DNA from: Lophium mytilinum | Lineage: Eukaryota | NCBI GenBank assembly: GCA_010093605.1 | Contig: MU004190.1 | Span: 310,001 to 374,000, forward strand | DNA length: 64,000 nt | Reading direction: 5' to 3' | Part shown: one piece after another, positions 5,107 through 34,702 of the stretch | Layout of the letters: each line of letters starts with the position of its first letter | Position numbering within the stretch: the first letter of the stretch is position 1 | Notes under the pieces: model-generated | Database searches by the model: none | What the model was told of the DNA's origin: nothing | Seen by the model: the letters and a program-made list of their open reading frames with translations, nothing else | Position numbers and translations under genes: made by a program

Positions 5107-5548
5107 AGTGTCGCAATGTCTTCTGGAGGGATGCTTGTAGAGTTGATGGCGGTGTGAACCGGTGATGAAACGATATTTGATTGTAGTCGTGGTGTGTCGT
5201 GTCCGTAAGGTGTTTTGTGACGTAAGAAAACCAAGAAAGCGTAGACGAGAGAAGGCTTGACAGAGGTGGAAGGCCTTTCACCACGGTGAACAGCGGTTGT
5301 GCTTAGGGCATGTTTCACGGGTCTGCAGCGGATTGGCGGGTGGTGAGGAAACGGTACGCTTGAATTCACCTCCGGATCAACAGCTCGGATACAAATGGCA
5401 GGTAATTATCCCTTCTCTCACTCCTTGTACCAAAACGCCTCCATCACCCCCACTAAACTCCTACTATCACCACCACTCCACCTCTTCAACACTTTCCACG
5501 CTCTGCAGCACGGTGTCGCTCAACCCACGTGCTATCCCCGATCCGGCA

Positions 5549-6565
5549 ATGGAGCCCTCAGCTCTGCTCGCCCTCCCCGCCGAGGTTCGACAACAAATTC
5601 TTTGCGAGGCCCTTAACGATTCCACTCCTTCCCTCGTATTCGAGAAGCAGATCACAACTGTGACCCCCCTTAACGACATCTGCAAACTCCTCCGAGCAGA
5701 CGTCGACGAATTGAGCAAGAGCTGGACACCCGAGCCAGGAACCACCAAAGTCATCGTCAAATCCGACGAAGGGCTACATAAGCTCGCAGATTTTCACCGC
5801 CGCTGCACCGAGCGCGCAGCCGCGGAAGGCCGTCGATGGACTGGTTTCAAGGAAATCCAAATCCCGTGCATCCGCAATGTGATTGGTCGAGGAGGTCTCA
5901 AGTCTATCCCACCGGTATCTCGGGAAGCTATCAACCCGCTCAAGGACTGGGACATCGCGGCACTCCCTCCTACCGTCAAGAAGATAACTTTCGATCTCAC
6001 GATGCCGCGGAGGCTGCTGAAGGCGCTCGAGAAGTGGATCCCCGTCCCCAAAGAGCCCTGCGATCCACCTCCCAAGGAATTGGAGAGGTTCTGGGCCATA
6101 CTCATCTCGAGAATTGGTGACAACATCACTTGCATGGATGCCAATTTGATTGCAGCAGGCAGAAGAAAGCGGCTAATTCACCAGTCGCAGAGAGACAGGA
6201 ACACAGGTGTGGCGTTCGCATCTATCGGAAGCTTTCCAAAGAGCCAGACCAACGCAGTGCTTCTCTCTACATATGAGGTTCTTTCAACCGGTGGCTACTT
6301 CGAATATGAAGCTTATAGTCAACCTACTAGATCGTTTTTCACTGAATACTTCAAGAGCTTGCGGGGGGCGCGTATGTCTTACCACTTCGATATGGAGAAC
6401 AAGCGGGAGGCCTTGTCGAATGAGCGGGCGGCTTTGGCGAATGATCGGGCGGCTATGGCGAGGGTTGAACGGCTTGTGGAACAAAAGAATAAGATCGTGC
6501 GGCAGGTGGAGAAGTTGCAAGAGAAGGTCAAGAAGATTGAGAAGAAGATGTCTGGTCAGAAGTAA
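5549..6565 (+). CDS. F-box-like family paralog 2, intronless, coiled-coil C-terminus
   Basis: First ATG at 5549 gives MEPSALLALPAEVRQQIL, aligning with the N-termini of the two paralogs; shared WxPE-(G)TTK, LPxTVxKxxxDxTMP and FW motifs. Confidence 0.85.
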   Translation: MEPSALLALPAEVRQQILCEALNDSTPSLVFEKQITTVTPLNDICKLLRADVDELSKSWTPEPGTTKVIVKSDEGLHKLADFHRRCTERAAAEGRRWTGFKEIQIPCIRNVIGRGGLKSIPPVSREAINPLKDWDIAALPPTVKKITFDLTMPRRLLKALEKWIPVPKEPCDPPPKELERFWAILISRIGDNITCMDANLIAAGRRKRLIHQSQRDRNTGVAFASIGSFPKSQTNAVLLSTYEVLSTGGYFEYEAYSQPTRSFFTEYFKSLRGARMSYHFDMENKREALSNERAALANDRAAMARVERLVEQKNKIVRQVEKLQEKVKKIEKKMSGQK

Positions 6566-7581
6566 GGCTGCGGCTGCGAGACATGTTGGATGCAGGCGCT
6601 AGGATCATGATGGATAAGCCTTGTATCCGAATACTCCCCGGGCGGCTTCAGCCCTAGTATTATAGTACGTCTGCTTTCGCCTGAGCAATGCTTTGAGCTG
6701 AATTCTCTTCTGCGTTAGCTTCATTGCGACGAGAAGGTGCTTTCCCACACTTCTTGGCCTTTTCAGCTTTCTCGTACTCTCAGTTACAGTAAACTTCTAC
6801 ACCAATTCATTCTACTTACGAAGAACCCTGGTCGTGATTGAATATCTGGTATTGCTACGCTGGCATGCATAGTCACGTGACTTATATTAACTCGTCGTAC
6901 TCAAGATCATATAAAAAGTTGTCTTGAATCTATAGTAAGCAGTTGGGAGGCCCCTTAACTTCCAGAACAGTGAGTGTGATGAGGACGAAGTTCCACCCGG
7001 GAGGTATATACAATGCACTGAATGATGTTAGAACAGACAGCCATATCTCCTTAACAAAATTGAAACAATGCTTCTTGTTATCTAGAGGTGAAATTTGTGC
7101 CCGCTTGGCTCTTAGACTGGCTCAATTTTGACAGTTTTGCTGTTTAGAAATGAATGAATGATTGAGCATCTCGTATCTGAAAGTTTGATAGCTCAAAGAT
7201 GTGCTTCTGTCTTCTTCAATCGCAAGCGGAGGATACTATTTGTTGCAGGGAGTTTGCAGAATCGGACTTTATTGTACAGAAACGATGCACGTTGGCAGTT
7301 TTTCAGCAAAGTCTGACGTGCATATTCTCATCCCGGCGGTTCTTAAGTGGGAACTTAGCTTGTGATGATGCTTCGTCTATTGATATGAGAGTATAAACTA
7401 ATAATGCGAACTCGTCAAGAGTGTCGAGCAACAAATGTTTAAGCCCCACGGGCGTGTTGTACCGACTTGAGGCCATTGGATCAACACTGCTCCTCCGTGA
7501 CCAAAACTAGCCTCCATCCTTCACGATCCCGCCCACCAACCCAATCCAGCAGCCCCACCCGACCCATTCCCACAAAATCTG

Positions 7582-7652
7582 CCGTACCGCGATTGGGGGG
7601 TACGCGACGGGGAACTTTGGCCGGCCTTATATAGATCTAAGTTAAAAATAAA
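7582..7652 (+). repeat. Left TIR of the large DNA transposon
   Basis: Inverted match to 26475-26545 with few mismatches. Confidence 0.92.
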
Positions 7653-8999
7653 CCTTTCTAGCACCTTAAATTTACCTTTACGTGATTTATATACTATATT
7701 TACTTTAGATATATTTACTATAAATAAGGATTAGGGTAGTATTAGTCTTAAAGCTAAAAATAACTTAAGATAGACTTAGGGAAAAAAATGCCTTAGAAAT
7801 ATTTCGTCTTATATGTAATTTTTAAGAAGCTAGATTATTACTATCTATAACTATACTCTAGAGTAAAATAATACTATAGAGTTACTTTATAATAGTCTAA
7901 TCTTTATAGTAAATTTATTAAATAGTAAGATTTACCTAAAGATAGAATTTTAATAAAGATATACTATAGTAGAGCCCTTAATTAAGTATTATCTATAATT
8001 AACCTATATCTAGTATATTCTTAAAAAAAGGCGTACTTAACTTATAAGCTTATATAAGATACTTCTATAGAATGCCTTTAAATAAAGATTAGACGCAAGA
8101 AATCCTCTTATACCTAATAGCCTAGAGATGCGTTTAAGAGAGTTTTAAAATCCCTAATTATAGCGGTGCCTTAAGTATATACCCCTAATTTTAGAATTAT
8201 AATTATAGCTTTAAAGTTAAGTATATATATAATAAGTTAATTAAAATATTATAATATATTTATTTTATATAATTATTACTACATAATATAGAAGGTCTAG
8301 AAACTACCTAGATAAAGTATAGTATATAATAAGAGATGCTGCGCTTTTTATTACATATCTTAATACTAATTAATACTGCCGCCTAGGGGTATATATTTAT
8401 GCTTAGATGCCTAAGTACTTAAGTAGTTTAAAAAGAAATAGAAATATATTAAAAGAAGCTATACTAGAGTATTATATCTAAGAAAACTACTACCTAAGAA
8501 AACTACCTAGAAAATTCTACTCTATATTAGATGGCCCTTACTATATATATATACTAATAATAGGCTTATAGAATAAGTAAGGTAAATTAGCTAAAAGTTT
8601 AAGACCTAAAACTAACTTAGGGGCGTTCCGGCCGGGGCAAGATACTATATTATTTATCGCTAGTTAGATTATAGTCCTTAGTTGCACCGGCCTTAGTCTT
8701 AGAACTAAACTCTTAGCGGGCCTTAATTACTAAATTATAGAAATAGATATTATAGTAATCTTTATATATACCTATATACTTAAAGAACTTTATAAGATTT
8801 ATATTACTATTAAGGTAGTTATAAAGGGATAACTTATTATTATTTTAATTAATATTTAACTTAATATAGCTATAGATATTAGCGTAGATATCTAGTACTA
8901 TTAGAACCTATCTAGAAGTCTTAAAAATTATAAGGAATAATATACTCTATATAAACTAATTAATAATAGAATAGAACTCTATAATTAAAATCTACCCGC

Positions 9000-10275
9000 T
9001 AAAAAAAGAGAATATAAATTTAAAGTTCTTAATTATATAGTTTATTTAAAAGTACTCTAGTATATATTACTAGCATTTCTATAGTTTAAGATTTTTATCT
9101 AATTAGAGTAGGGCTATAATATAGGCCTTTAAATATATTTAGTAATTATATATAAGTATATATAGAGGAAACTTACTTTACCTATAACTAGAAATATATA
9201 TTACTAGTTAGAATAATTCTTCTTAATCTTCTTACAGCACTTAAATATTATCTTTAAACTTAGATTCTCTAGATTCTAGTTCTTCCTATAAGCCCGCGTA
9301 ATAATTATATCTTACTTAGTATAATAGTACTATTAACTAAATACTTAATATATTTTAGTTTTAAGGCGCTTAAAGAACCTCTTTATAGTATCTTTATATA
9401 AGTTAAGGTCTAGGTTATTATAATCTAGTTCTAGGGAGGGTAGGCCTATTATATAAGAATTAGTAGGCCGGGGAGTATTCTTTCTAGAAGGCTTTATAGT
9501 TTTTATAGGCCGGAGGCGGAAGGTTAGCTTAGGTAATAGAGTACTAGTGTTAGCCTCTTTTTTTATATTATTAGCGTTATCTAGTAGTATTTTAACTAGT
9601 ATTTTAATCTTAGAAAGCCTCTATAATACTAATCTACTAAGTTAGGGGTTAATTTTATAGCGCAGGCCTTATACTATACTAGCTTATATTAACTTAAAGA
9701 TAGATATCTATATAGCTATTTTTTTCTTATCTATCTTATCTTTATCTAGATTTTACTTTTCTAATTTAGAGTTTCTATAGAGAAGTAGATTATCTACCTT
9801 CTTATCTATAGTTTTAAGCTCTTACCTAGTTTAAGTATAAGCTAGAACCTATATAGATATAGATATATTTCTAGCTACTAAATTCTTCTAGGTTAAATAA
9901 CTCTAGAGTATTTAGAAGTCTAGGTCTACTATTCTAGATTACAACCTAGTATTTATTATAAGGGCAGGGCGCTTAAAGAGAGAGGTAGTCTTTTTTAAAG
10001 TAGGTATTATTATCTTTAGCTTAGGCATCTTTAACTTTATAGATAGAATTAAAGTCTTAGATTTTAGAGTTAGCTTTAGAGCCTTAGACTTTAGAAAAGG
10101 CTTTAGGGCCTTAGGCTTTATAACCTTCTTTAGTAGCTAGAAGAGTTAGTTAAGTTTATTATATATTTAAGTTAGATTCTTACTATAGTTAGTTCTTTAG
10201 CGGCCTTACGCTTTATAGCCGTGCCTAGTAACTAAGATAGAGGCGATGCCTCGCTGTTTAATAGAGTAGCTATAG
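9000..10275 (-). pseudogene. RIP-degraded ORF of unknown function inside the DNA transposon
   Basis: Minus strand reads ATLLNSEASPLS..GTAIKRKAAKE, then KPKALKPFLKSKALKLTLKSK (de-RIP: KPKAPKPSPKPKAPKP) and a charged helical-looking region. Ends approximate. Confidence 0.45.
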
Positions 10276-10921
10276 TTTAGCGGTAGATAGAAATATAATT
10301 AAAGATAATTAAAGTATAATTTACCTTACTAGCTAGCCTATATATTAGGCTACTTAATAAGAGTAAGATATAATTAAATAGAATAGGGGTTATAGTAGTT
10401 AGTAGATAGAAAGTAGTTAGTTATAGGGTGCAGGTTATATAGAATTACAAGAGCATAATTAGAAGTAGGTAAGATTAGATAATATAGAACCTTCTAAAGA
10501 GACATTAAAGTTAGTTTAAAAATTATTCTAATTTAAAAAATATTATAGGATATCTTTAAGATTACTATATAATATTATATATATCTTAGTATATATATAT
10601 AGTTAGAATTATAGTTAGGCTTATATATAGAATTATAGTTAAAATAGTAAGGCGGCGTTATATAATAGTTATATAATAGAAACTTATAGTTACTTCTTAA
10701 GAGATAAGTATATATAATCTAAGATAGGATTATATAAGGTTACTTAAGATAAAACCCCCTAGGGCGGGGATCTAAGTAGGTAGATAGTTAAGTAAGGTAG
10801 AATAAGATAGAAATAAATATCTAAAGTTATATTAGATATATATTACTTAAATATATCTCTAACTATCTAAGTAACCTTCTATTTAATATAACCTTAGACC
10901 TAAATATTTTAGATAGTATAT

Positions 10922-11395
10922 TTTTAAACTATTTTTTATATATAATTTCTATACCCTCTAAATTAGTATATTATTACTATATAATTTCCAACTACTTTAA
11001 ATTAGCCCCTTATTACTATACTATTTCTAGCCACTTTAAATTAGGCCCTTTAAGCTATTAAATTTCTAACTATTTTAAATTAGATTACTTTTACTATTGA
11101 ATTTCTAACTACTCTAAATTAGGTTGCTTTTACTATTAAATTTCTAACTACTCTAAATTAGGTTATCTTTACTATTAAATTTCCAACCCCTTTAAATTAG
11201 AGCGCTTTACTTATTTAATTTCTAGACACTTTATATTAGGTTATTCTTACTATCTAATTGCTAGGCACTTTAAATTAGGTTATTCTAGCTATCTAATTTT
11301 TAACTACTTTAGATTAGGCTACTATAGTTATTTAATTTCTAGGCACTTTATATTAGAGCATTTTTAAAGTATATTTTCTAAGCGCTTTATATTAG
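10922..11395. repeat. Degenerate 39-bp tandem array, ~12 units
   Basis: (A/T/G)ATTAG recurs at 10961, 11000, 11039, 11078, 11117, 11156, 11195, 11234, 11273, 11312, 11351 and 11390; example unit AATTAGGTTGCTTTTACTATTAAATTTCTAACTACTCTA. Confidence 0.9.
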
Positions 11396-12518
11396 AACCT
11401 TAGAAAATAGTAATTTAAAATACCCCTAAGTCTAATATTATATATATAATACTAAGTTAGATTTTCTATATACTAGGCGGTTATAACTCTAGATTACCCC
11501 GCTAAATACTAAGACGCGTTTACGTATTTACTCTATTACTAAATACTATAGCCTTATTAGCTATCTATAGGCTATACTTCTATAGATACTCTTTTATACT
11601 ATAGATTCTAATCTTAATACTAATATTCTTTACCTTTAGAGTTATTATACTAAGGTTAACTTTAGGTCTATTAGGCCTATTAATGCCGCTATATAAGAAG
11701 TAACCACCTTAGAGCTCTAACTCCCCTCCTTCTTCTATTTAAACCTTATAATTAAGTTATAAGAGAATACTTCCTTATATAAGCTATAAATCTCTACCTT
11801 TAATTAAAGAATAGATATATAGATAGTAAATAAATAATTAGATTAGTAGCCTAATTAGATACTATAATTATAAGGCTAATAACTTACTAGCATTTAAAGA
11901 GGACCCTAGGCTATAAGGCGGGGATTTAAATAAATATATAAAGATAGTTATTACTAATATTAACCTTATAAGTAATATAGATAATAGTAGCTAGTAGTTA
12001 AAAGAAGAGGTACTATATTTTAAGCTTATCTCTAATTCTAAAGACTTAGAATCTAGCTCTTCTTTAGATAAGGCATCTAAAACTAAAAATACTCTTAACC
12101 CTAATAAAATATCTACCGCTGCTATAACTTTCTCTATATTTTCTTCTTCTTTATCTTCTTCTTCTACTCCCTCTACTATAGTTAATAAGTTATAAGAAAT
12201 ACTATATAAAGTTTAAGATAGAGATATAAACTCTTTCTATTTTACTCTCTATCTACTCTTTAACTCTATAGAAATCTTATAGAAGTATTATACTGCGTTT
12301 TAATAGCTTATTATAAGCCTTAAGAATCTTAAATTCCTCTATACTCTTCTAGCTTATATTAAGTAGCTCTGCAATTAGGCTAGGTTCTAGCTACCTCTTA
12401 TTAGTATAAGATAATAGATATTAAAGCTAGACTAACTCTAGCTACTAACTAGTAAGACTCTATCTAAGAATATAGTATTCTTTAATATAGAGGATATACT
12501 AATAAAGTTTATAGTATT

Positions 12519-12718
12519 TATAATGGCTATATCCCGCTCTCCACGTAGGCGCGCAGCTTGCGCGCTATTATGTGAGCAGGCCGTTACGTGACCGCCGTTA
12601 GTCCGTGCGCCCTAGCCGAACTATAATCTTGGAGCTGGCGCCGCCCTAGCTCCTTGTAGATTCTTTCTAGTTATAATTAATAACCTATTTCCTACAACAC
12701 CCCTTTAGTTCTGTGACA
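12519..12718 (+). repeat. 5' LTR of G1
   Basis: Direct repeat of 20034-20233; TATAATGG (RIP of TGT) ... GTGACA. Confidence 0.95.
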
Positions 12719-15700
12719 CTAAGAATCTACCTTTCTTACTCTAGGAAAGACAGGAGCACTACTACTACTACTACTACTACCCATTAACGCACGCCGTCGC
12801 CCGTTGCCTATTCGGGGTGCTTGTACCACCGCCGATAGCCTAACCTTAATTTTCTCTTTCTTTTACCCTAATTCTTCCGCCTTAGTAAAGGCGCGGCTCC
12901 CCTATCTCTCGTTATGGTCGGTACACTATCCTCTTAAGGAGAAGGAATGAAGAAAGGCATTAAAAAGAAGACCTTAGGAAATCCAATCTCTAGCGCGCCA
13001 TTAATAGCGCGTTCTGCCCCCCGCCCTAATATACTAGCCGCAATAGCAGCTTTATAGATAGAAATACAGGAGACTCTTGGTACTAAATCTTAAATGCGTT
13101 AGCGCGGTACATATATTGGCGCTAAACCTAATAAGCCCTCCTCTACTCTAAAAGCGCGCGCAGCCTAATGGAATAGAGGTAAACTTATTTATAAGAACGA
13201 CTTAGATGCTAATAAAGAGGATAATAATAAGGGTAAGGCCTCTACCGGAACCCTATTAGCTGTCTATGTGACCGGCAAAGGAAAGGAGGCCGCAACTCCT
13301 GCTACTAAGGATAATAATGTCCTTACTACCTTAGATATAGAGCTTGAAGCTTATAACGCGCGACTATTTACTATACACCGCGGTTAACGCTCTACTCTTC
13401 TTCTCTAGGATAACGACAACTTAGTCCTAGGGGTTTGCGATGACGACGACGAGGATAAGAGTAATTAGGTCCGCCATAAGATTACTAATACAAGCGACCT
13501 CTAGCAGTCCGTTTAGGCCTAAGGAGACGAGTAGTTTAATTGTATTTACTACTTATCTAGCTTGCAGACTATCTTTAATAAGTATAAGAATATAGCACGC
13601 ATGCAGGCCGCCGGCTTGCGTAACTAAGTAGATAACCTTTAGGACAGGCTATCTAAGAAGAAGCGTAAGTTAGAATACTTCTGTTAGGCCGCTGTGGACT
13701 ACCGCGCGGAGCTTACCGATCTTAATATTAAACTAGCTAAGCACGTTAACCGTTGTAAAGAACTGTCCGAGCAGCTTCGGGCCTCTATAACCGCGCATCT
13801 ACGTACACGTAATAAGGCTAAGGACTTCCGCAAGGAGGCCGAGCGTGTTAACACTAAGAACATTGCTCTACAGCGGGAACGCGATGAGCTCCGAGAATAG
13901 ATTTAGCGCCTTTAGCAGCAGCCCCAGCGTTACGCCCGGTTTGTTACTCCTGCCTACGGTTCGGATAAGGAAGATTACACAGCCGTCCTTAATAGCCTCC
14001 GCTAAGCCTGTAGAGCCCCTATATTGGTAGAGAGGAACTAAGTATACTAAACGCCCCCTAACACAGCCCGCTTATATAACGCGCGCGATGTAGAAAGTAT
14101 ATACCTAGATAGGCTATAGAGTATAGAAAGTATATATAATATAGATAGGCTGCATAGTAAGACTAATACCTACTGCGATATTACTTCTACTCCCCTTATA
14201 GGCCTCCGTGGAGGCGCGGGCTACTGCGCAGACTTCCGCTCTAATACTGGCGACGACAAGATCCTTAATAATAAGAAGTTTCTAGATCTCTAGAACTTCT
14301 ACAGCGATAAAAATTGTAATAAATTTAAGGAGTGGCTTATTTACGCCTAGGATAAGGTTAATAGTAGTATTACTCTATTCCCTATAGAGAGCTCTAAGAT
14401 TAAATATATCTATGCATACCTAAAGGGGACTACCTTCTAGTCTATTAAGGGACGTGTAAAGCTAACTAGTAATAACCTATTCCGCACCGTCTAAGAAATA
14501 TTTAAGGAACTGGAAGAGGAGTTTAGTAATTACAACACGGCGGCTAAAGCAGGCGATAAACTCTATAATAAGGAGAACGACATGGGCGAATTAGAGTCCT
14601 TTAATATATTCCTTACCCGCATAAAGACCTACTTCGCGCCTCTCTACTATAAGGACTAAGAGAAGATTAACTAGATAGAACGAAAGATAACACCCTCCCT
14701 CTAGCGCTGTATCTTTAACGGCAGCAAGTTTAATTCCTTCTAAGACTTCTGCATTCGTGCCCGCACGGCCGCATGTTTAATTAAGAAGCTTAATAATAAG
14801 CTTTAAGACAAGCGCGTAACCCGCGACCGACAAGACCGCCCCCGTTGGCAGGACCGCAACGACGGGTCTAACCGTTGTAAGGGCCGCGATAATTGCCGCG
14901 AAGTTTAGGGCGATAGGCGCCCTACCACCGCTAATACTAATAAAGTACCCCTTTGTCTTCTATAATATATTACTAGGCTACTAGCAAAATAGGACTGATG
15001 CTTCCGCTATTTAAATATTAGTTATTGCCTAGGTTCTTTCTGCCCTATATTTAGAAAGATCACGACTTATAAGAAGACTAAGAAGAAGCTCCACAACATT
15101 AGTATTAACCTTGCTTCGCTAGAATAACTAGACTAAGAACCGGAATCCAATAAAGAAGCTTATTTAGAAGCCGCCGTAGTAGCAGCTTTAGATAACAACA
15201 AAGAATACTCTTTATCGGGGGAAGAGTAGTCCCTGGCGGAAATTAATGCTAGGGACATTTACTATTATAGTGGACGCGTAATACGTTTTAGCTTCTTTAA
15301 AATAAAATTAGATAGCTGGAACAACCCCCCGCTAAGCCTAACGGCTCCAACAATATTATTATGTCCGCCTTTTCCCTCAACGCAACCGCTAGCCCGAAGG
15401 GCGCGCTTAAATTCTACGCTAAAATTGTTACCGGGAATGGCGAACGTTAAGCTACATTACTAGCTAACACTGGTTGCTCCGGATCTTCCTTTATTAATAA
15501 GTAGTACGCTAAAAAATACGGCCTTATCCTAATTCCGCTTATAAAACTATAAGGGCTACGCCTTATAAATGGGAAAGCTGTGCCAGCCCTTACCTATAAG
15601 GCTAAAGTTACCTTACGCATTAGTAACTACGTTGAGACTATATACTGCTTTATTATGGATCTAGGGGCTTATAATATTATTCTTGGCATGCTATAGATGG

Positions 15701-18700
15701 ATCTTTATCTACCGCGATTTATTTTTAGCCGCCGCTATCTTATCTTAGAATCTAACTATTGTATGGCGAATTATATATTAGATAACTACGTAGTTTAGGT
15801 ATAGAGTAAGAATGTAGAGGATAAAGTTGCTACTAATAAGGGGAAGCAGCTCTTTAAGGCTAAGGTTGCCGCGGTTAAGCTAAAATACTTAAAGCTAGGC
15901 CTATAGGAAGTTACCGGCGCTAAGATAGCCTATAAATTAAATTGAGAACACGAAGGGGCTACTAGCAAGATGTGGGCTAACAACTTTGCAGCCGTAGTTG
16001 CTAATCGAGACGCTAAAGTAAAAGTAATGGAGGATAGCGTCCTATATAAGCCAGCGCGTTAAGCACGGCTTACTAAGGATATTAATCTAGACGCGTGGAT
16101 CGACGACGCAGTTACGAAAGTGTCCGCGATAATATAAGAGAACTACGAGAAGTTCTTTAAGAAGATACGCACCGCGCTAATTAATCGCGACGAATTATAT
16201 AAACGACTCCCTCGTCTTATTAAGGACTACGTCTATCTTTTTAACCTAAAGGAGGCTGACAAGCTACCCCTATCTAGGCCCGGCGTTAATTACAAGATTA
16301 AGCTATTACCTAATGCAAAGCATCCAACAAAGCGCATATACGGTCTCTTAAGGAACGACTCTATTATTGTAAAGAAATATATTAATAATATATACGGTAA
16401 GGGCTTTATCCGCAAGAGCTATTTAAACTTTTACTCCCTAGTTATTGTAGTTAAAAAGCCGAGCGGAGGCCTTTGCGTCTACATCGATTATAGAGGGCTT
16501 AACGCCGCCACGCTTAAGGCTTGCAACACCCCTCCGGCCCTCCAAGACACGCTTCTGCTCCTCCGCAAAGCGCGCAGGTTTACTAAGCTTAATGTTATAG
16601 CCGCCTTCAACGCTATTTAAATGCGCGACGGCGATAAGAAGTTTACAGCGTTTCTTATAAGGTATGGCTTGTATGAATTTATAGTCTTACTATTTAGCCT
16701 CTATAATGCGCCCTCCACTTTCTAGGCCTATATTAACGACGTGCTGCTAGAATATTTTAATAACTTTGCTACGGTTTATATGGACGACATTCTTATATAT
16801 ATAGAGGAAGATAATAAGGAGGCTTATATAGTATATGTACGAAAGGTACTAGCTAAATTAGATAAGGCAGGCCTATTCCTTAATATTAATAAGTGTGAAT
16901 TCTAGGTTACTAAGGTTAAATACCTTGGAATAATTATTACAGCCGACGGAATTAAGATGGACCCGGATAAGATTAAGACTATACTTGAATAGCCTATACT
17001 ATAAAAGCTAAAAGACGTCTAAGCCTTTCTAGAGTTCTGCAACTTCTATAGACGCTTTATAGGGCTATTCTCTAATATATCCGGCCCACTAATAATGTTA
17101 ATATCTTCTAAGGTTTATTTTATGTTTCTATGGCCTGCTAACTCTATATAATAGCGCTGCTTCTAGGCCATTAAGAACGCTTTCCGCAACGCCTCTGTAG
17201 TCGCCCATTTTAATTCTATATTAGAAACCTATATACACGCTAACTTATCTAACGGAGTAACTAGAGCAGTACTATTATAAATTTAGGCTAACGGTGAACT
17301 CCGCCCTGTGGCTTTTATGTTATATAAAATGACCCTATAATAAATTAACTACTAAATATATAATAAGGAATTACTTACAATTATGCGTGCGTTTAAGAAA
17401 TGGCAGCTAGAGCTGCTAGGCTTATAAGACAGTTTTAAAGTATTTACTAATTATAAGAACCTTTAGTACTTTATAACTAGTAAGCAACTCAACCGCCGAC
17501 AGGCCCGCTGGGCCGAGTTTCTATCTAAATTTAATTTTAAGCTCTCTTAGTAAGCCGGTAAAGATAATACTATAGCTGATAGCCTTACACGCCGCCCGGG
17601 TAACATCGCGGAGGACCTTAGTAACGAACGCGTTAAGATTAACTACTAGACGATTCTTAAGTCTAAACACCTGGAGCCAGGCATGGACCACGCTATTAAC
17701 CTTGCCGCAATCCTTACTTATAATAAAGTTGTCTATTCTATAATTAACCTAGCTATTACCTTCTACGCGATTAGCGAGTTGGAAGATGTTAACGAGGCAA
17801 AGTGTACTTAATATCTAATAACTGCTAAGGACGTAGTTAACAACGACTAAGGTTAGGAAGCTAAGCTTACTAAGCCGCGCGCTGATAAGGCATTAGGTAC
17901 TCAGCACGCAGCCTAGTAGGACGGAGGCGAGTTATTAGAGGACCCTCTAGACATAAGTGAAGCTATCCTAGACAATGTCTGCATTAAATAATAGATAGAC
18001 CTAATTATATAAGCTATTATTGCGGCTAAGAAAAATAGATTACGTCGCCTTCCACGCGCACTCTGTTAGGAGTATAAGCTCCGGCTGGAACTTAGTAACT
18101 GCTGCATTATAGGGGGCTTAGTCTATATACGCGATTAACTATACATTTCTATAGACAAGAGGCTGCGCATAAGAGCTATTTAGTGCATGTATAATCTAAG
18201 ACCTATAGGCTATAGTGGCACTACCTCTACCTACTTACGCGTTGCCCGCTTCTATTTCTAGCCAGGCATAACCTATAACGTGGACCGATACGTTAGTGCC
18301 TGCATAATGTGTAAAAGGATAAAGCACGTCCGCATAGGTAAGCACGGGCTCCTTAAGCCTCTCCCTATAGCAGACTAATACTAGATGGATATTACGGTTA
18401 ATTTTATTACCCCCCTACTAATCTATACGCGTTACGGCCGCAACTATTAATATATTATGGTTGTATGCAATAGGCTTTTGTATAAGAAGAAATTTATTGC
18501 GCTAGACTCTATAGAACTAGCTAATGTAGCCTAGGCCTTTATTAAATGGATCTGGCGGAAAGAAGAATACCCGCGCAGTATAATTGCTAACTAAGAAACC
18601 TAATAGATGTTACACTTCTAGAAACGCCTCTGCAAGCGACTTGAAACTAGCCCGAAGCTGTCTACTGCCTTTTATCTAGAGACCGACGGCCTTACTGAGA

Positions 18701-19776
18701 GCGCAAACCTGGCCCTTAAGTAGTACCTCCGCGCGTATATTAACTATAAATAGGACAATTAGGCTAATTTGCTGCCAATTACTAAATTTAAGGTAAACGC
18801 TGACATTAACTCTTCTATAAAGGTTGCCCCGTTTCTAGCAATAAAGAGCTATATCCCTTAATTAGGCATTAAGCCAGCCGAGAACTATAACGGACACGGC
18901 CCTACGCGGCAGCTACAAGAACAGGCCGATGAACTAATTAATAAGCTCGACGGTCTCCGCAAGTAGTATCGCGAAGAGTTAGAATGGGCTTAAGTAAAAT
19001 AGGAAGAGTACGCTAATGCCTATTAGCAACCAGCCCCTAAGTTCCAGGAAGGCGATATAGTTATACTTAATTACCGCTTTATTAAAATACAGCGCCCTAA
19101 TAAGTCTCTTAACTATAAATACCTCGGTCTCTACTACATTGCCGAGCGCATTAAAAATTACGCCTATAGGCTTGAGCTGCCCGAGTATATAAAGATCTTC
19201 CTAGTATTCTACTCTTAGCTACTCTATTGCATGGACAACGCCCGTTCTATAGAAGGACAGATCTAAGAGCCACTAGGGCCAGTTTTTATTAATAAAGAGG
19301 GATACAACTAATATAAGGTTAGATAAATTATTGCTATATAACGCGATAAAAGATATTAAGACTATAAAGACTCTATACGGGCGCGAGGCTTTCTGTAATA
19401 TAAAGCCCTATATCTAGGACATAATATCTAGAATTAAAACCCACTATGGCAGGACTAGGACGAGTTTAGCAATAGCCCCTATCTAGTAGCTAATTGGCAC
19501 CATAAATACGCAGGCGAACCGCCTTATCTAACGTATGTCCGCCCAGCTAATTGGGAGCCGCTTCTTGCCTCTATAAGACTACAACGTTGTTAAGCCGCGC
19601 CTTATACCTAAGCCGCAACCTAGCCGCTAGCAGCCAAGTTAATAATAACAGGCTCTTCCGTTAAGGACTTCTAAGCTTAGACAAAGAGGAGGCTTCACCG
19701 CGCGCGCTAATAGCAGCTAGGTAAGTTGCTCCGCTTACTAACAGTTACGGTCCGTAGTAAAGAATGCGCGCGTTCC

Positions 19777-19860
19777 GCACGGCTTAGCAGCCTTGCTATA
19801 AAAAGCACGGCTTAGCAGCCTTACTATAAAAAGCACGGCTTAGCAGCCTTGCTATAAAAA
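19777..19860 (+). repeat. 3 x 28-bp tandem repeat in the G1 3' region
   Basis: GCACGGCTTAGCAGCCTT(G/A)CTATAAAAA at 19777, 19805 and 19833. Confidence 0.95.
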
Positions 19861-20033
19861 GTATAGTCTTTCTATTTTCTCTTTTAATCTGTAGCGTCCT
19901 TGGCCTATAGACTTTCCTTCTCTTTTTTATTAGCCCCTATGGCCTTGTCTATTGTTCTATAGCCTTCCTATTTTAGACGGGAGAACGGATAGCTATCGGA
20001 GGACTGTAGGTAGTTCTTTGAGGGGGGGGGAGG

Positions 20034-20233
20034 TGTAATAGCTACATCCCGCTCTCCGCGTAGGCGCGCAGCTCGCGCGCCATCACGTGAGCAGGCCGTC
20101 ACGTGACCGCCGTTGGTCCGTGCGCCCTAGCCGAACTATAATCTCGGAGCTGGCGCCGCCCTAGCTCCTTATAGATTCTTTCTAGTTATAATTAATAACC
20201 TATTTTCTATAACACCCCTTTAGTTCCGTGACA
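20034..20233 (+). repeat. 3' LTR of G1
   Basis: TGTAATAGC...GTGACA, directly after a polypurine tract. Confidence 0.95.
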
Positions 20234-23200
20234 GTATTTAATTAGCTAAGGGGGAAAGTTTATTAGAGATTTATATAGTATATAGATACTTCTTTAGAAT
20301 TCTACTACTCTACTACTTAGAGTACGTTAGCATGCAGTATATCTAGAGAGTTTACTAGATACTCTAATAGCTTACCTATTCTACCTTTAGACTTTATATA
20401 TTATAGATACTCTATAGATAGCTATCTCTACTACTAGAATCTATAATAGTATCTTAGGCAGGTATATTATATTAGTTAGAACTTCTAAAGTATATCTAGT
20501 AAGCCTAGCTAGGTAAAGCTTATAATCTCTTTAGCCCTTTAATAATAGAAACTTTTAGAAGACTACGCTAATATTATATATAGTATTATTACTCTCTATT
20601 AGCTAGAACTCTTTATTATACTTAGGTAAGAAGAGTTTATACCTAAGAATACTATTATTACTTAAGGACCTTTTATTTTTCTAGACTACTAGTATAATAT
20701 ACCTAAAATTAAGGAAGTTATATACCTATATATTTAAAATCCTACTAAGAACTTTATTATTTAGAACCTAATCTATATAAATAGTACTTTATAACCTCTA
20801 AGCCTATCTACCCCTATTACTACTAAGTTAGAGATTGCCTATTTTAGCCGGTATTTTATTATTTTATTATTTCTTAGTAGCTAAATAATCTCCCTTCTTC
20901 TTATTATCTATATAGATAAATTTAGGCTATATTATAATATATATAGAGCTATATTTAGTATATACTAGACTTTAGCTAGCCTATCTACTCGCGAGTAAAC
21001 TAGAAATACTAGTATTCTCTCTATTATATTAGGCCCTTTTAGGGCATTATATAAGGATATTATTAGTATACTCTACTATCTCTAGTATCTAGATAAGGGT
21101 ATATTTACTACTATTACTAGTCGGCGTATATTTCTATATACTTTTACTATAGTTTTTACTATAGATATAGCTAAGTAGAATAAGAATTAGAGTATATATA
21201 GGCTAATAGTAAATTACTTCTATAGCTTATATTTAATCTATAAAGATAAGCGGTATAATCTTAATTTTAATATTATTTAATTTAGCCGCTATTACTATTA
21301 AACTATATAGCTATAAAAGTAGATTAAAGAAGTCTAATTATAAGTAGTAAGGAAGAAGCTTTATAAAGGATTTAGCTTTATAGATAAAGCACCCGCTATT
21401 TATAAGATAGTACTAGCGCTTAATATTATTAAGTTCTAACCTTTAGATTCTACTTACTCTAAATATACTAGCCTTATAAAGTAGATATAGTCTCTTCTCT
21501 TTAAATATATACTTATAAAGAATAGCTAAGAAGAATATACTAGGTAACTTTAACTCTAATAACTTTCTACTAGCTAGTCTTATCTTTAATTACTACTTAA
21601 ATATCTTAAGTCCTATTAGATAGGTAAGTGCGCGCGCATCTTTATTATTATACTACTTATACTCTAGTAATAGCTACAACTAAAATAGGTTAAGAAGAAC
21701 TTTTAAATAGCTATATCTTCTACTTTTAAGCTTTTAGTAAGTCTCTTAGTCTATAATATAATTATATAGGCATATACGTAGATAGCTTATAGCTCTACTA
21801 TAATTCTATCTTCTTCTATTAGCGCTTTTAATATATTATATATTAATAGCGCAATCTATAAAGGCTAAGAGTTATAGTAATAACTCTTTAAATGCGCTAT
21901 AAAGAGTATATACCTAAATATTATAAAGAAGAGAAATAAAGCTAGCTAATAAGGCCGTGCTTAATCTATAGCCCCCTTACTTACATTATCCTTCTAAAAT
22001 AATAGTAATATTAAAAGTAAGGTATCTACCCCCCTTAATCTAGATACTAACTTATCTAAAATTTAATTAAAGAAGAAGAACCCTAAGGTATAGATAAATA
22101 TACTATTAGCTTTCTATACCTATTTAAATTAATATACTAGGCTATACTATAGGGGAGTTACTTATAACTTTACTATACCTATAAATATTATATCTTTTAT
22201 AGGCGAGAATAAATATAGTAAATTTAAGGCTATAGTATACTAAATAAATAAGCGTAACTATTTTAAAGGTCTACTTATCTATAAGAATTTTCGCCTTACT
22301 ACCTAATTTACGCTTGCCAGCTTATTTAAGGCGGAGTATTCTAGTTATACTAGAATAGTTTAAGAACTTTTTAAAACTTACCTAGACCTATTTAACTCTA
22401 TACTACTATAATTTAAGTAGTTAGAGTTTATTAAGAAGAAGAACCTTAACTTATAAGGGAAAATACTTATAGATAACTAGTATCTAAATTTAATTCTCTA
22501 CTATTAGATTCCTTATACTTAGCTAGCTAAAGATAATAAGATTTTAGATCTAAGAAAGGTAGACGCGTCTAACGCCTTTTTAGTAATACTTTACGTTGCG
22601 TACTCTATAGAGTATAGAATTCTAAATTTATTTAAACTTAAAAGAGATACTTTTTAGTAGTTTAAAAGATTAGCCTTTACTAATCTATAAGACCCCTTAT
22701 CTCTACTATATTTAAGTTTAATACTAATACTCTATTAATAGAGCGTCTAAGAAGCGCATTAACCTTATATCTAGAAACTATATTATAGTATAAGAAGAAA
22801 GGCTAGGCTAGATTAATAGTATTTTCGCTTATAAGCTCCGCAGTTAGAATAGGGTTTTCTTAGTTATACTATAGCTAGAGGATTATATAGTAAAGCGCAA
22901 TTATATTTTTAATCTACCCCTTCTTTCTTTTCTATATTCTTTCTAGCGGAGCATTATTAGGCTACTAATAGTAGAAGTAAAGTAGCTTTTTATTTCTCTA
23001 TTATATATTAATAGCGTTTTTATCTTCTATCTATAGAATAGTTTATAGTTTTTCTAATTCTAAGAAAGTACTCTAGCTAGCATTACTATAGCTTTATATA
23101 CTTATATACCTCTAGGTATCTCTTAGATATATTCTAGGTATAAGAAATAATAAGGCTATTCTCTAGGTATTCTATTAATTTAATTATAATTAATTCTATA

Positions 23201-24249
23201 GCCTAATTCTCTACTATTATAGTATCTACCTTATATATATCTTAATGCCGGCTCTTAAATCTATAATAGTAAACTTTTTACTAAATAGAACTCTTATTCT
23301 AGAGCTTTCTTTTAGTCTAGTATAATGCACCCTACTTAAGTTCTAGGCTAGGTTTACTAGCCTATAATTTTATACTTCTAGTTTTTAGCTAGGGGTTTTA
23401 AAATATAGGTTTAGGCTATATATAGGTATTAGGCTATAGATACTACACCTTAGAATCTTACTCTAGAAGTTAGGTTAGAGGTCTTAGATATTAGAGTTCT
23501 ACTTTAGGAGTTTTAGGCTAGGGGTTTTATACCTTAAAGTTCCGCGCTAGAAGTTTTAGGCTAGTATATAAGAAGTAAGTATTAGTAGTTTATTACTAAG
23601 GAGTTGCATATATATACTACTTAAAGCCTTAATTATTAATATTCTCTAAGAAGAACTAAGGCGTAATAAATGCCTACGGCTTTAAATACCTAGTAAGTAT
23701 TTCTAATATTATAAGAGTTATATAAGTATTAGCCGCGCTAGATACTTCTTACCTAGTAGTAGAGTATTAGAGTATTATTAATATACTATAAATATAATAC
23801 TTAGAAGATATAATTAAGAATTAGTACTATAGAATATACCTTATAGCTGGGAATTTAGTTATATAACTACTTTATATTATCCTAAATAAACTATACTCTA
23901 TTAAAGTTTCTAGAAAATAGTATATAGAATCTTAGAATTATTTCTAGAAATTACTATATAAAATTATAGAATAATTTCTATCTAGGTAAATAGATATTTA
24001 TATATAGATTATATATAAGCGGGAGATTCTAGTAGAAGTAGGGTAGAGAATTATAGTTAGTAGAAGATAGCTTAAATATAAACCTTTTATAACTATACCT
24101 TAAGCGCCCTTATATAAACCTATAGCTATACCTTATATAATAGAGATATATTTTATACCTAGAAACCTAACTTTTAATCTAAGAATATAAGTAAGATAAA
24201 AGGCTAGATAGGTACTAATTAGTACTATATTTTATATTACTCTATCTAA

Positions 24250-25550
24250 TCTATAGCTTACCTAAATAGTTCTCTATCTTAGTAAGTATCTATCTATCCT
24301 AGTATAACCCTGCGCTAATAGTAATAGGGCCGGCCTTAGTAATAATTTTTTTAATATATTATAAATAGTTATAGAACGCTAGCCTTTCCCTAGATAAAAA
24401 AAGTACTATTTTTATTAAGTCTTTTAATGCTATCTACCTTTACTATATACTAATAATTAGAGAACTTATAAGGCCTAATTTTAAAGTATTCTCTTAGAGT
24501 TACCTTATAAATTAAGAATATACTAAACCTATCTACCTTACCTATTAAATTATATTATATTTTAGAATTAGTTTCCGCAGCTAGAATATTTTTTTAATAT
24601 TCTTTTTTAAAGTTACATTAGCCTCTATAAAGAACTCTTATGGCCTATCTTTTAGTATTATACTAATTCTTATAGAGAATTCTTATAGTATTTATTATAG
24701 TATTCTTTTAGAGTTGCGCTAATTCTTATATAGATACTAAATCTATTTAGATATAGGCTTATACTAATATAGAAAGTTTTAAATGTCTCTTAAAATACTA
24801 TATATACTTATAGCTGCCTAATCTTTTTCTATCTATATTTATAAGTCTACTAATTTAATTTAGCTATAAAGTAGATCTATAAGTGCTAGCCCGGCTAATT
24901 ATTATATATATTTAGAATATTAGATTCCTGCATTAGTCTCTTTATAGTATATCTTCTAGCTATTAATATTCTAGCTATTAATTTACGTAGAGGTATATAC
25001 TAATAGTAAAGCACCTAGCTACTACTAGTACTCTACTATCTATCTACTTTACTAAGTTCTACCTCTAAAGGCCTAGTAGTAAATTACCTATATATTTTTC
25101 TAAACCTATAGACTACTAACTAGAATAAGCTAGGCAGATATAGTAATATTATAATTATCTAGTACCTAGGGCTACTCTATAATTATTACTAATAGCGGAC
25201 GCCTAGGTCTTAAGTAAGAACTAGAAACTTTAGTAGGAAACTTCTTAATATTTAAAAGATATACTCCTTCTATAGCTAATTATAAGTAAGAGATATATTA
25301 GTTACTAATAGTATACTAGTAAGAGATGCCTTCTATAATAAGGCTTCTTAACTAAGGTTTTAGTAAGTTAAATCTAAAGTGTCTTTTTAAGTAGTATAGC
25401 TAATATAATACTAATTAAACTCTATTAACTTCTTCTACTAGCTCTATACTCTATATTACGCTATCTACCTTCTTCTATACCTCTTCTTATATATATCTTA
25501 TTAGAAGTTAGATAAAGATAGCTAGAATAAAAGAGTGGAAATCTTAAATA
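24250..25550 (-). pseudogene. Long RIP-degraded ORF of unknown function inside the DNA transposon
   Basis: One minus frame reads as protein-like for ~400 codons (DFHSFILAIFI...EGISY...RPRRPL...LAGLALID...GRPYY) with TAA/TAG stops of the kind RIP makes from CAA/CAG/TGG. Ends approximate. Confidence 0.45.
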
Positions 25551-26474
25551 TATAAATTTATTATAATACTATATATAGCCTTTAATACTATTTCTTATAG
25601 TACTCTTAGTAGTAAGTTATTTTATCCTGCATAGGTTTTCTATATAGCTAACTAGAACACCCTTCTTAGGCTTCTACCTTGCACGTTATAGCCCTCCTTT
25701 ATTTCTAATCTTAACTACCTCTTAATCTACTCTAGATAGAATAGTACTAAAGTAGATATAGTTATATAGTATATTAGCGGCGCTTATTAAATAGAGATAT
25801 ATAGCTTAGGCTATAGAATATAATAATAAAGCCCTTATATAATAGGTAGATAGATAGATAGATAGTAGACTAAAAGATAGATAATTTTAAAATATTAATT
25901 TAGAATTCTAGAACTTAGGTAGTAGTTATATATAGGCGTATATAATTTTAAAAGTTAAAAAGTATATATAGTTTACTTATAATTATATATAACTCTAGTA
26001 ATTATTATATAATAGCCTAGACTATAGTACTTATATTCTAGAATATATATATAATACTTAGATTAAGGTATTTATCTTAGTAGTATCTTTAGACTATCTT
26101 AAGTATAACTAGAGAAGAGAAATAGATAATTTTAAGAATCTTTTATAAAGATAATTTTAACTTAACTACTAGTAATTTTTAGCTAATAAGTATTACTAGT
26201 ACTAGGTTATTTTAATATAGTAAGTTTAATTCTATTAATAGAATAGCTATATTCTTAGGTTTCCTTAATACTTACTTTTAATAAGAAAGGTCTTAGCGGT
26301 AAGAAATACTTAAAAAATACTTAAGTTAAAAACCTCCCTTATAATATAAGTACTATATATAATACTCTTTTATAAGGTAGATATTCTATTCTATCTCTCT
26401 ATATTACGTAAGGTTGTCCTAAGTATAGGGACACTTAATTTTAAGATGGAAATATAACATTACTCTAGGAACAA

Positions 26475-26545
26475 TTTATTTCTAACTTAGATCTGTATAA
26501 GGCCGGCCAAAGTTCCCCATCGCTTACCCCCCGATCGCGGTACGG
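26475..26545 (-). repeat. Right TIR of the large DNA transposon
   Basis: Inverted match to 7582-7652. Confidence 0.92.
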
Positions 26546-27559
26546 TGCGAGATCACTCTCGCAGCCACGTTTATTCCCGCGAACTGGAACCAGGAACTGT
26601 AGAAGCCTCGGCGATGCGATATCAACGTCCCATTTATGATAGCGGGAAGAGCTGCGATATCACGCCCCACCCGCACAACACCAACGCCCCTCCAAAGAGC
26701 CTTCCCGCCTTATCGAGGCGCACCCGCGTATCTCGGCGTTCGCGACGGATCCCGGGGGCGCGACGACCTAAGCGGACGCCGCTGACGCCGCGGACAACGA
26801 CACAAGCTCTCTGCCCCAGGTCTTGGGCTTGCCGAAAGCCGACCGCCAGCCTTGCGAAACGAACCTACTGACCACGGCGGAGATCACTCCTGTGGACAGC
26901 TACAGCCGCCTCCGCGAGGGGAGAGAGACGATGGCACGAGGGCCACAACCCGCGAGCAATACGTGGAGTACGTAAATAGTGGAAGAAGGTCAATTAAGGG
27001 CCTCAGCGGCGCAGGATCTGATTTGCGGGTGAGGCGCAAAGGCCGTGAGACTGGTGTCCGGGCGTAGCAGCTAGCCGTCGACAGCTCGAAGCAGCAGGTG
27101 GGAAGCGGGAACAGCGACACTACGTACAGTCTTGGGCGCGCGCAATTGGGTGAATAGCTGCGCGCGGTGATCATGGGATGCACACTATGCTCGCTTTTGG
27201 CTGGGACGGTTGGGGCTACGGATTGTGGAGTGGGTGCGGGTGGGCTGCTGCGATGCGACCAACCTACCCCCGGGGAGGTGAATGACGCGGGTGGGCTGCC
27301 GTGTTTATAGCATGCCGGGACCCTGAACTTTTTTTTTGTTGCCGAGAGACAGAGACGTTGTTTGCGATTTTGCAGATATTTTAGGATACAGGACACTTCT
27401 AGGCTTGAGCTACGATACGGTAGCTGTACTACGTGATACAGCTCTCTGATTCTTGGTGGGTGCTACCCTTGTGCGCTCCAATCGAGGCCCGGGCCTCTAT
27501 CGCATTGCGCCTGCTAACAGCTTCACCCCTCCGCAGACCTCGCGTTTGAAACCGCCGCC

Positions 27560-33700: not shown

Positions 33701-34080
33701 TAAGCGCCTCTAGAAGGGCCTTAGAGGTGCCTATCTATTAGAAATACGTAGCTAGGAGCCTACTATATTTAAGGCTATATTAATAGGCTAGCAGCTTATA
33801 AGAATACTAGTAATATAACTAGTAGTATAATAAGCTATATATTATATATAAGCCTATATATAAGGGTAAGGCCTTAATACTATACTAAGGCCTATATATA
33901 GTTATATAATACTAGAAAATACCTTATAGATAGTAGAGGATAGGGGGTGTACTTAATTAAGCTTAGAAGCTAGCTTCTAGGCCTGTATTAGCATGGCCTC
34001 GGTCCTTTATCGTCTACGTGGCGTTTTCTGGCATTGTAATACGAAATGCGCCAAGCTACTGGCATTCTATTCTGTTGCCC
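30711..34080 (-). mobile_element. Mutator-like (MULE) DNA transposon M1, complete, RIP-inactivated
   Basis: ~207-bp TIRs (30711-30917, ~33874-34080) beginning GGGCAA; perfect 9-bp TSD CCCAAAGCA (30702-30710, 34081-34089). Long TIRs with a 9-bp TSD are typical of Mutator. Degraded ORF on the minus strand (ALAFMHLEG). Confidence 0.9.
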
Positions 34081-34702
34081 CCCAAAGCAAGGCCATCCAT
34101 CCCCAGAACAGCCCTCCAGGTTTCAACGCTGCTGCTCGAGCTCGTGCTGCAGCGACCATCCCAGCTGCATCCGAACGTCAACTAGGTAGCGAAGAATAGC
34201 GTAGCTCTGCGCATGTTCCACGCCGGCCTTTGACCCCAGGAATCCCACGGGCTACACCAGGAGCTCCCGGGCCATCAGCAATCCTGGACTGACCAACAAG
34301 GTAGATCGCCGCTCAAAACGACCTCCAGGCCCCTCCCGCTTCCACGCCTCCCTCTCTGTGTGACCATCACGGCAATTCCCCCATACACTTTTTCCTTTTC
34401 AGCGTTCGTCTCAGCCGGCAGTCTAGCATATTCCCCAGACCTGTTTCTCGCCAATACGTTCCCAGCTACGAATTGGTCCGTTACAAGCTGGGGCAGATCA
34501 TGCGCGGCGTACTCAGGCCTTGTCAAGCTAGAATAAAGCTTGCCTCTGACCCGCTGTCCCGACTTTGTTCGTCGCTTGAAAATCTGTCGTGTCCACTTTC
34601 TTCACATCAGTCTCTTTATCCTCGCCACTGATACTCCCCTGCCTTGGCTTCTCTCACCGTCCCTACGAGGGCTCTCCCTCCCGCCCGAATACTACCTCCG
34701 CC

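Follow-up and report, generated by a model that had tools for sequence, protein, structure and literature searches.

Cut-and-paste transposons of the CMCT clade (EnSpm/CACTA, Mirage, Chapaev, Transib, Plavaka, and ESTA, along with Lanisha) generate target site duplications of 2 to 5 bp and mostly have 5'-CA..TG-3' termini (PMC12730594; this and the other papers discussed below are cited from excerpts). Within the clade, PlavakaA elements of Agaricomycotina have a 2-bp duplication and TGT..ACA termini, and PlavakaB elements have a 2- to 3-bp duplication and CATCA..TGATG termini (PMC12730594). Plavaka-group CMC/CACTA elements of the ascomycete Tuber have 2-bp duplications and a CATAC motif in their terminal inverted repeats (TIRs) (PMC12581995). 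According to a 2017 survey, in which Transposase_21/23/24 represented CMC, the fungal CMC entries in RepBase were restricted to Basidiomycota and Mucorales, fungi lacked Transib, and DNA transposons were few in Dothideomycetes (PMC5751038). Here we analyze a 64,000-nt stretch of the Lophium mytilinum genome (GenBank assembly GCA_010093605.1, contig MU004190.1, positions 310,001 to 374,000 of the forward strand), referred to below as the window and numbered from its first letter. The AT-rich block at 7582-26545 of this window is, in our judgment, probably a single dead, formerly autonomous cut-and-paste transposon of the CMCT clade, from a family closest to Plavaka that occurs in Pezizomycotina. 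We regard it as a rather unremarkable mobile element whose fungal family is poorly annotated.

RESULTS

Inverted repeats and a switch in composition delimit the block

A repeat search identified 71-nt TIRs at 7582..7652 (plus strand, starting CCGTACCGCG) and 26475..26545 (minus strand). Their arms are 93% complementary, with matches at 66 of 71 positions, and the five mismatches comprise four transitions and one transversion. The next-longest inverted pairs in 7000-27200 were 41 to 44 nt long at 70 to 76%, which is typical noise in AT-rich DNA, and a 21-nt TIR core had exactly two occurrences in the window, one on each strand, where none was expected (100 shuffles). By direct reading of the left (...AAAATC TG | CCGTACCGCGAT...) and right (...ATCGCGGTACGG | TG CGAGATC...) junctions, putative copies of a TG target site duplication lie at 7580..7581 and 26546..26547; no longer direct repeat is common to both flanks. 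The termini of the element are 5'-CCGTA..TACGG-3', and a literature search for the terminus as a text string gave no match. The left TIR also contains two direct sub-repeats, each GTAC(C)GCGA followed by a G-run (GGGG), at TIR positions ~4-19 and ~20-31, which are possible candidates for transposase-binding sites.

The flanks have a G+C (GC) content of 0.52 to 0.55 and a normal (CpA+TpG)/(ApC+GpT) ratio of 1.25 to 1.26. In the element arms, that is, the parts on either side of a nested retrotransposon described below, GC content is 0.255 to 0.257, TpA/ApT is 1.66 to 1.71, and (CpA+TpG)/(ApC+GpT) is 0.11 to 0.14. These values are those of saturating repeat-induced point mutation (RIP), and its intensity is uniform over both arms. 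The composition switch falls at the TIR ends, and the extent of the AT block matches that of the element. In each TIR, the outer ~45 nt have remained GC rich and little affected by RIP, as expected at the edge of a duplicated unit. Repeat search, junction reading, and composition thus agree with an earlier reading of this DNA made from sequence only (the sequence-only reading), which had proposed that 71-bp TIRs and TG bound the whole ~19-kb AT block.

The block contains the relic of a transposase gene destroyed by RIP

To find relatives under this mutational load, we translated 20240-22939 (plus strand, 900 amino acids [aa]) with stop codons as X and compared it with 1.84 billion representative proteins by exhaustive phmmer search. 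The search returned 488 relatives at an E value of ≤1e-3, 228 at ≤1e-10, and 35 at ≤1e-30. The best of them, P0001 (1,186 aa; E value of 9.3e-58), aligned through residues 258-1074 with query residues 3-816, which places the aligned DNA at 20246-22684. BLASTP of the relic against P0001 gave one collinear alignment of 835 columns (E value of 7e-60), and tblastn of eight family proteins against the window matched only at 20246-22684. On the left arm, 12097-12432 aligns to P0001 residues 111-226 (E value of 6e-6), and the alignments of the two arms together indicate that the transposase open reading frame (ORF) was continuous across the retrotransposon insertion. Extrapolated to the ends of P0001, the gene is predicted to comprise a 5' part at 11767..12518 (plus strand, from homology and codon signal; start extrapolated) and a 3' part at 20239..23020 (plus strand, from homology; end extrapolated), or ~3.5 kb encoding a DDE transposase of ~1,100 to 1,200 aa. 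Homology from phmmer, BLASTP, and the left-arm alignment therefore bears out the ~3.5-kb transposase relic of the sequence-only reading. The relic drew no match in the word-indexed protein search, phmmer found 0 matches among PDB sequences, and a family-alignment search of viral contigs gave 30 pattern matches, none of which was confirmed.

The relatives are fungal proteins that have gone largely unannotated. Organism names were found for 11 of the 18 relatives looked up: Bogoriella megaspora, Chaenotheca gracillima (three proteins), Sclerophora amabilis, Flavoplaca navasiana, cf. Caloplaca sp., Alternaria viburni, Xylaria flabelliformis, Penicillium bovifimosum, and Annulohypoxylon truncatum. 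All 11 belong to Pezizomycotina; for three, the lineage was checked. All but one of the 18 are labeled hypothetical or uncharacterized. The source record of P0002 (KAI9749166.1), a relative of 1,068 aa, carries the label "Glutathione reductase," which is probably an annotation error.

When 64 relatives were scanned with Pfam, Plavaka (PF18759) was the sole family detected, in 2 of 10 relatives at an E value of ≤0.01 and in 12 of 54 at ≤1e-3; the other 50 had no Pfam match at all. Plavaka matches always fell on profile positions ~187-323 of 325, the region of the second D and C(2)C, and three of the 64 relatives reached the gathering cutoff (26.3 bits). The Transposase_21/23/24 models had no match in the family. 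In an alignment of 50 relatives (A1), the invariant residues are E449, Y492, D560, C579, C582, and H657; conservation reaches at least 90% at D476, H893, H897, E917, and H920. The family has the catalytic motif order D, D, C(2)C, H(3)H, E, the signature of the CMCT clade, and the relic aligns across all of these residues: its 3' part holds both D residues, C(2)C changed to Y..Y, H(3)H changed to Y..Y, the final E, and the start of a C-terminal domain considered below. The C-to-Y and H-to-Y changes are explainable by RIP. A hAT-like C-terminal motif seen by eye in the relic was rejected, as the stretch aligns to the CMCT family.

Stop codons number 73 among the first 816 codons of the aligned relic and 12 among the 140 codons aligned in the left arm. 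At 101 family-conserved columns (≥80% conserved), it is identical to the family in 42, differs in a manner explainable by C>T or G>A changes in 51, and differs otherwise in 8. Random pairing gave 4.5, 15.2, and 81.3, respectively, and the sum of identical and RIP-explainable columns reached at most 31 in 1,000 permutations. All conserved Cys and His residues in the column set are now Tyr, while the two catalytic D residues and the final E are retained. The 42 identical and 51 RIP-explainable columns demonstrate that a once-normal transposase gene was killed by RIP.

A homolog has a RAG1/Transib-like fold and a BAH-like domain

The fold was evaluated on a homolog, P0009 (840 aa, 87-sequence alignment), rather than on the relic itself. 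Its AlphaFold2 model had a mean predicted local distance difference test score of 89.5 and a predicted template modeling score of 0.90. Foldseek returned 43 matches in PDB at an E value of ≤1e-3; the matches listed were RAG1 or RAG-like chains, and HzTransib was at rank 48. In VIA-align, RAG1 superposed on model residues 111-613 with a Z score of 15.1 and a root mean square deviation of 4.2 Å over 373 residues; the Z scores were 13.8 for BbRAGL and 12.3 for HzTransib. The P0009 model therefore has the RAG1/Transib-like fold of CMCT transposases. Taken together, the motif order in the family, the fold of the homolog, and Plavaka as the only Pfam family among the relatives support the CMC-like transposase that the sequence-only reading had suspected.

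Residues 646-833 of P0009 matched the BAH domains of ZMET2, ORC1, DNMT1 (BAH1), TNRC18, and BAHCC1 in VIA-align (Z scores of 9 to 10.7). A BAH-like β domain ends the transposase family, and the relic (~22.5-23.0 kb) matches its first part only. The Pfam BAH model detected nothing in the 64 relatives scanned. When 150 stored relatives, many of which are fragments, were scored with local hidden Markov models, all 150 had the N-terminal core, 93 had the H(3)H/E part, and 37 had the BAH-like part. The neighbors of P0001 in language-model features included Plavaka and Transposase_21 clusters and one cluster automatically named "BAH domain-containing," which we treat as a lead only. A literature search found no text joining "Plavaka" with "BAH domain" among the matches listed.

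A Ty3/Gypsy retrotransposon interrupts the transposase gene

The nested element (G1 in the sequence-only reading) is a Ty3/Gypsy long terminal repeat (LTR) retrotransposon at 12519..20233 on the plus strand, delimited by its LTRs, duplication, and domains. The repeat search gave raw direct repeats at 12521-12721 and 20036-20236 (93% identical), and edge reading placed LTRs of 200 bp each at 12519-12718 and 20034-20233, flanked by the 5-bp duplication GTATT at 12514..12518 (left) and 20234-20238 (right). The LTRs begin with a RIP-altered TG and end with ACA. One plus-strand frame contains RVT_1 (2.3e-19), RT_RNaseH (5.1e-18), RT_RNaseH_2, Integrase_H2C2 (8.8e-06), and SH3_Tf2-1 (4.6e-08). Ty3/Gypsy membership follows from the LTRs, the 5-bp duplication, and the order reverse transcriptase (RT), RNase H, integrase. 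It interrupts the transposase gene near codon 256. With a GC content of 0.42 and a RIP index of 0.61, the Gypsy element is more mildly mutated than its host, and this lighter RIP suggests that it inserted after RIP of the host.

Removal of the Gypsy element and one copy of its duplication leaves a host element of 11,244 bp. The sequence-only reading had described a TIR-bounded class II element with G1 nested in it, ~11.2 kb long without G1, and both points hold. It had also called the element giant; however, 11.2 kb is not unusual for elements of the CACTA type.

Three near-perfect 28-bp tandem units (GCACGGCTTAGCAGCCTTGCTATAAAAA) lie at 19777-19861, near the Gypsy 3' end and upstream of its polypurine tract. 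Elsewhere in the window, a RIP-saturated Ty3/Gypsy pol region is present on the minus strand at 45500-49500, within an AT block spanning 39.5-64 kb; by blastn, it is ~66% identical to the nested Gypsy element in the RT region.

A second coding-like relic and a tandem array accompany the transposase

Coding relics were sought by translating both arms in six frames, reading stops as X, and scanning with Pfam at an E value of ≤0.1. As a positive control, the RIP-saturated block at 45.5-49.5 kb (GC content of ~0.26 to 0.28) yielded RT_RNaseH_2 (3.6e-13), RVT_1 (2.8e-09), and Integrase_H2C2, demonstrating that a Pfam scan with stop read-through can see strong domains through RIP. We also trained a codon log-likelihood model on the RIP-mutated pol frame of that block. 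Cross-validation gave scores of +57 and +66 for the true frame and of -31 to -139 for the other frames; under a first-order Markov null, the mean was -17.9 (standard deviation, 7.3) and the highest score was 6.5 per 600 nt (2,000 simulations). This model detected a plus-strand tract at 11.8-12.5 kb that resumes at 20.4-22.6 kb in a frame shifted by +1, the shift predicted by removal of 7,720 bp (insertion plus duplication).

The codon model also revealed another coding-like relic, here called gene 1, at 8553..10802 on the minus strand. Its signal runs in frame -2 from ~10.8 to 9.05 kb and in frame -0 from ~9.3 to 8.55 kb, at +12 to +20 per 600 nt. Gene 1 had no match in Pfam, in the word-indexed homolog search, or among the stored transposase relatives, and phmmer against PDB sequences gave one meaningless match (E value of 0.83). 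Since the word-indexed search missed a family that was found 488 times exhaustively, its silence on gene 1 means little. Between gene 1 and the divergently oriented transposase relic sits a 39-bp tandem array (10933..11400), for which Tandem Repeats Finder reported 10.9 copies at 10933-11356 and the repeat search up to 12 adjacent copies at 10938-11400. The codon scan showed no coding-like signal in the left subterminal region (7653..8552; 7.65-8.5 kb in the scan) or in the right subterminal ~3.4 kb (23021..26474; 23.0-26.47 kb). The sequence-only reading had predicted the 39-bp array, which both repeat programs recovered, and at least two other dead ORFs, of which the codon scan supports one, gene 1, and no second. 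It had further envisaged cargo genes; one extra coding-like relic without relatives is present, and no recognizable cargo.

Two further features lie outside the element. A second AT-rich RIP block at 31000-34200 contains a minus-strand coding-like tract at ~31.6-33.4 kb (+10 to +17 per 600 nt) and gave no Pfam match in six frames. In the GC-rich left flank, a 422-codon ORF at 5297-6565 (plus strand) retrieved no relative, not even itself, in the word-indexed search (lengths of 185 to 592 aa).

Sequencing contigs contain a probable paralogous copy

No second copy was found when the element was compared with the window by blastn. The locus was found in only two sequencing runs, X1 and X2, from a single sample that is possibly the source. 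We placed their contigs on 7082-27045 at ≥80% likeness; the joints reported here are among the matches listed. Extra layers of diverged contigs were present on the arms. One contig set had equal depth in all of its joints (37.9 in X1 and 66.2 in X2). This set skips from 12514 to 20370, i.e., lacks the Gypsy element, has several small skips in 11.3-12.5 kb, and joins 7660 to 24414 on opposite strands, with a short side of exactly 79 letters (7582-7660). We infer that it represents a paralog in which the terminal repeat is joined directly to the ~24.4-kb sequence and in which likeness ends at the first base of the element. The ~2 kb beside the right TIR was either deleted in the paralog or inserted here. 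Joints inside the 39-bp array show that its unit number differs in paralogous copies. One X2 contig skips from 12512 to 20233 with 5 shared letters and 25 letters on its short side; this would be an exact Gypsy-free site and fits the GTATT duplication. The contigs show that the element reached at least two copies in the genome.

X1 and X2 differ at many places in the arms (7653-12518 and 20239-26474), almost always by transitions, which go both ways (C>T, G>A, T>C, and A>G), while the Gypsy element and the right junction are identical in the two runs. The arm differences may stem from distinct RIP histories, from mixed nuclei, or from paralogs that were assembled differently.

DISCUSSION

Comparison with described elements places the locus nearest to Plavaka. 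Plavaka is the only Pfam family among the relatives (14 of 64), and the locus shares with it a putative 2-bp duplication (known here from one copy), the order D..D..C(2)C..H(3-4)H..E, a fungal host, and a multikilobase size. Unlike Plavaka, it has CCGTA..TACGG termini and 71-nt TIRs, its family carries a C-terminal BAH-like domain, and its named relatives are all Pezizomycotina; moreover, the Plavaka cutoff is reached by 3 of 64 relatives and not by the relic. With EnSpm/CACTA the locus has in common the catalytic signature of the clade, a multikilobase TIR element, a transposase plus a second gene, and duplications in the range of 2 to 3 bp. In contrast to EnSpm/CACTA, Transposase_21 (PF02992) was detected in 0 of 64 relatives and in no frame of the relic, the termini are not CACTA, the duplication here is of 2 rather than 3 bp, and no subterminal repeat arrays were recognized. 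RAG1, ProtoRAG (BbRAGL), and Transib provide the best structural matches to the homolog core (~330 to 380 residues) and share the order D, D, C(2)C, H(3-4)H, E; the spacings in the family from the second D to C(2)C (19) and from the last H to E (20) are equal to those of RAG1. They differ in having no sequence-level match to the family (profile against PDB), and Transib makes 5-bp duplications.

Outside the clade, the nearest analog in architecture is ToxhAT, a 14.3-kb element that carries ToxA in three wheat pathogens. It too is a large TIR-bounded block in RIP-prone Dothideomycetes, with 74-nt TIRs of ~92% identity and, in one species, an LTR retrotransposon insertion (PMC6737239). As described in the excerpts of that paper, ToxhAT is associated with a hAT-like transposase, has identifiable cargo, and lacks duplications, whereas the present block has a CMCT transposase. 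The six-frame Pfam scan found no hAT domain, and the flanks share TG only, not the 8 bp of a hAT duplication. The Styx element of Zymoseptoria (7.9 kb long, with a 36-bp TIR, a 6-bp duplication, and an integrase) was also weighed and set aside because it is of an unrelated kind.

Several observations weigh against assigning the block to a single CMCT transposon. The CCGTA..TACGG termini differ from the 5'-CA..TG-3' of most CMCT elements, from the TGT..ACA and CATCA..TGATG of Plavaka A and B, and from the CATAC of Tuber. The sequence-only reading had held that 2- to 3-bp duplications and C-initiated TIRs characterize CMC elements: the 2-bp duplication fits the Plavaka group, but the termini in the excerpted literature are 5'-CA..TG-3'. 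The TG duplication is known from a single copy and would match by chance in 1 of 16 cases. A scan of metagenome contigs with the TIR core gave 19 matches, all at chance level (25 to 34 of 71 positions identical, including the 18-nt core) and none extending into the remaining TIR, and a scan of viral contigs gave 0. The six-frame scan of both arms detected 0 Pfam families, so that the relic itself is without a Pfam match, and ~4.3 kb of the element (7.65-8.55 plus 23.0-26.47 kb) is without explanation. The family profile had 0 matches among PDB sequences, and the link to RAG1/Transib is therefore one of fold and motif order only.

The TIRs could instead belong to an outer, possibly nonautonomous element, with the CMCT transposase in a separate nested transposon whose own ends RIP has erased. 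We consider such a composite unlikely. It would account for termini that fit none of the CMCT or Plavaka termini in the excerpts of PMC12730594 and PMC12581995, for the ~4.3 kb without coding signal, and for the ~2-kb difference of the paralog beside the right TIR, and ToxhAT sets a precedent as a TIR-bounded composite of several transposons in Dothideomycetes (PMC6737239). However, no second inverted pair rises above AT-rich noise inside the element, the 2-bp flank match fits the Plavaka group, RIP intensity is uniform over both arms, and the paralogous contig set of equal depth contains a TIR end together with the region spanning the Gypsy site, in unchanged order.

Two further explanations are less probable still. 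That there was no transposon insertion at all, and that a RIP-mutated repeat cluster is bounded by an inverted duplication with TG present by chance, strikes us as very improbable: the block has a full-length transposase relic of a TIR-transposon clade, RIP ends exactly at the TIR ends, and the likeness of the paralog to the left end spans exactly 7582-7660. These findings outweigh the 1-in-16 chance of a 2-bp match, the lack of an empty site in the reads of one sample, and the example of ToxhAT as TIR-bounded DNA that has no duplications and may move by recombination (PMC6737239). We give even less credence to a cargo carrier resembling a Starship or ToxhAT and moved by a tyrosine recombinase or hAT transposase. 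A 19-kb block with a nested element and TIRs of 71 nt, compared with 74 nt in ToxhAT, is superficially alike (PMC6737239), but neither DUF3435 nor hAT nor any other Pfam family appeared in six frames of both arms, although in a Gypsy element mutated by RIP to the same degree this method detected RT, RNase H, and integrase. The sole identifiable gene encodes a CMCT DDE transposase, and there is no recognizable cargo. The distinction from tyrosine-recombinase Starships drawn in the sequence-only reading thus stands, backed by a positive control that worked.

We therefore retain the single CMCT transposon related to Plavaka as the preferred reading. Under it, the transposase would have bound the TIRs, and the element would have been excised by double-strand breaks and reinserted with a 2-bp stagger, yielding the TG duplication. 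Its BAH-like domain may have anchored the transposase to chromatin. The element attained at least two copies, RIP drove it to saturation (GC content of 25%), and the Ty3/Gypsy element inserted into the transposase gene with its 5-bp duplication, probably after RIP of the host.

It is plausible that the lineage is undescribed, although Plavaka-group elements with 2-bp duplications are already on record for the ascomycete Tuber (PMC12581995). Its termini match no CMCT lineage described in the excerpts of PMC12730594 or PMC12581995, and the BAH-like domain is noteworthy. Whether the family merits a name as a lineage of its own is doubtful, and only tentatively do we suggest an undescribed RAG1-like (CMCT) lineage of Pezizomycotina apart from Plavaka and EnSpm, marked by long CCGTA-type TIRs, a 2-bp duplication, and a fused BAH domain of the histone-reader type. 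If that were true, the BAH domain could steer integration to particular chromatin, and gene 1 and the 39-bp array would be lineage-specific accessory parts.

The 19-kb AT isochore amounts to two nested transposons killed by RIP, nothing more exotic. Reading through the stops of RIP-saturated DNA, combined with an exhaustive profile-free search, recovered the identity of a gene where Pfam and word-indexed searches failed. The transposase family so recovered comprises at least 488 clusters at 50% identity, is essentially unannotated, and is barely seen by Pfam. Its combination of a RAG1-fold transposase with a BAH-like domain is a lead for chromatin-targeted integration, and families of this kind may fill part of the gap in catalogued CMC elements and in the DNA transposons of Dothideomycetes.

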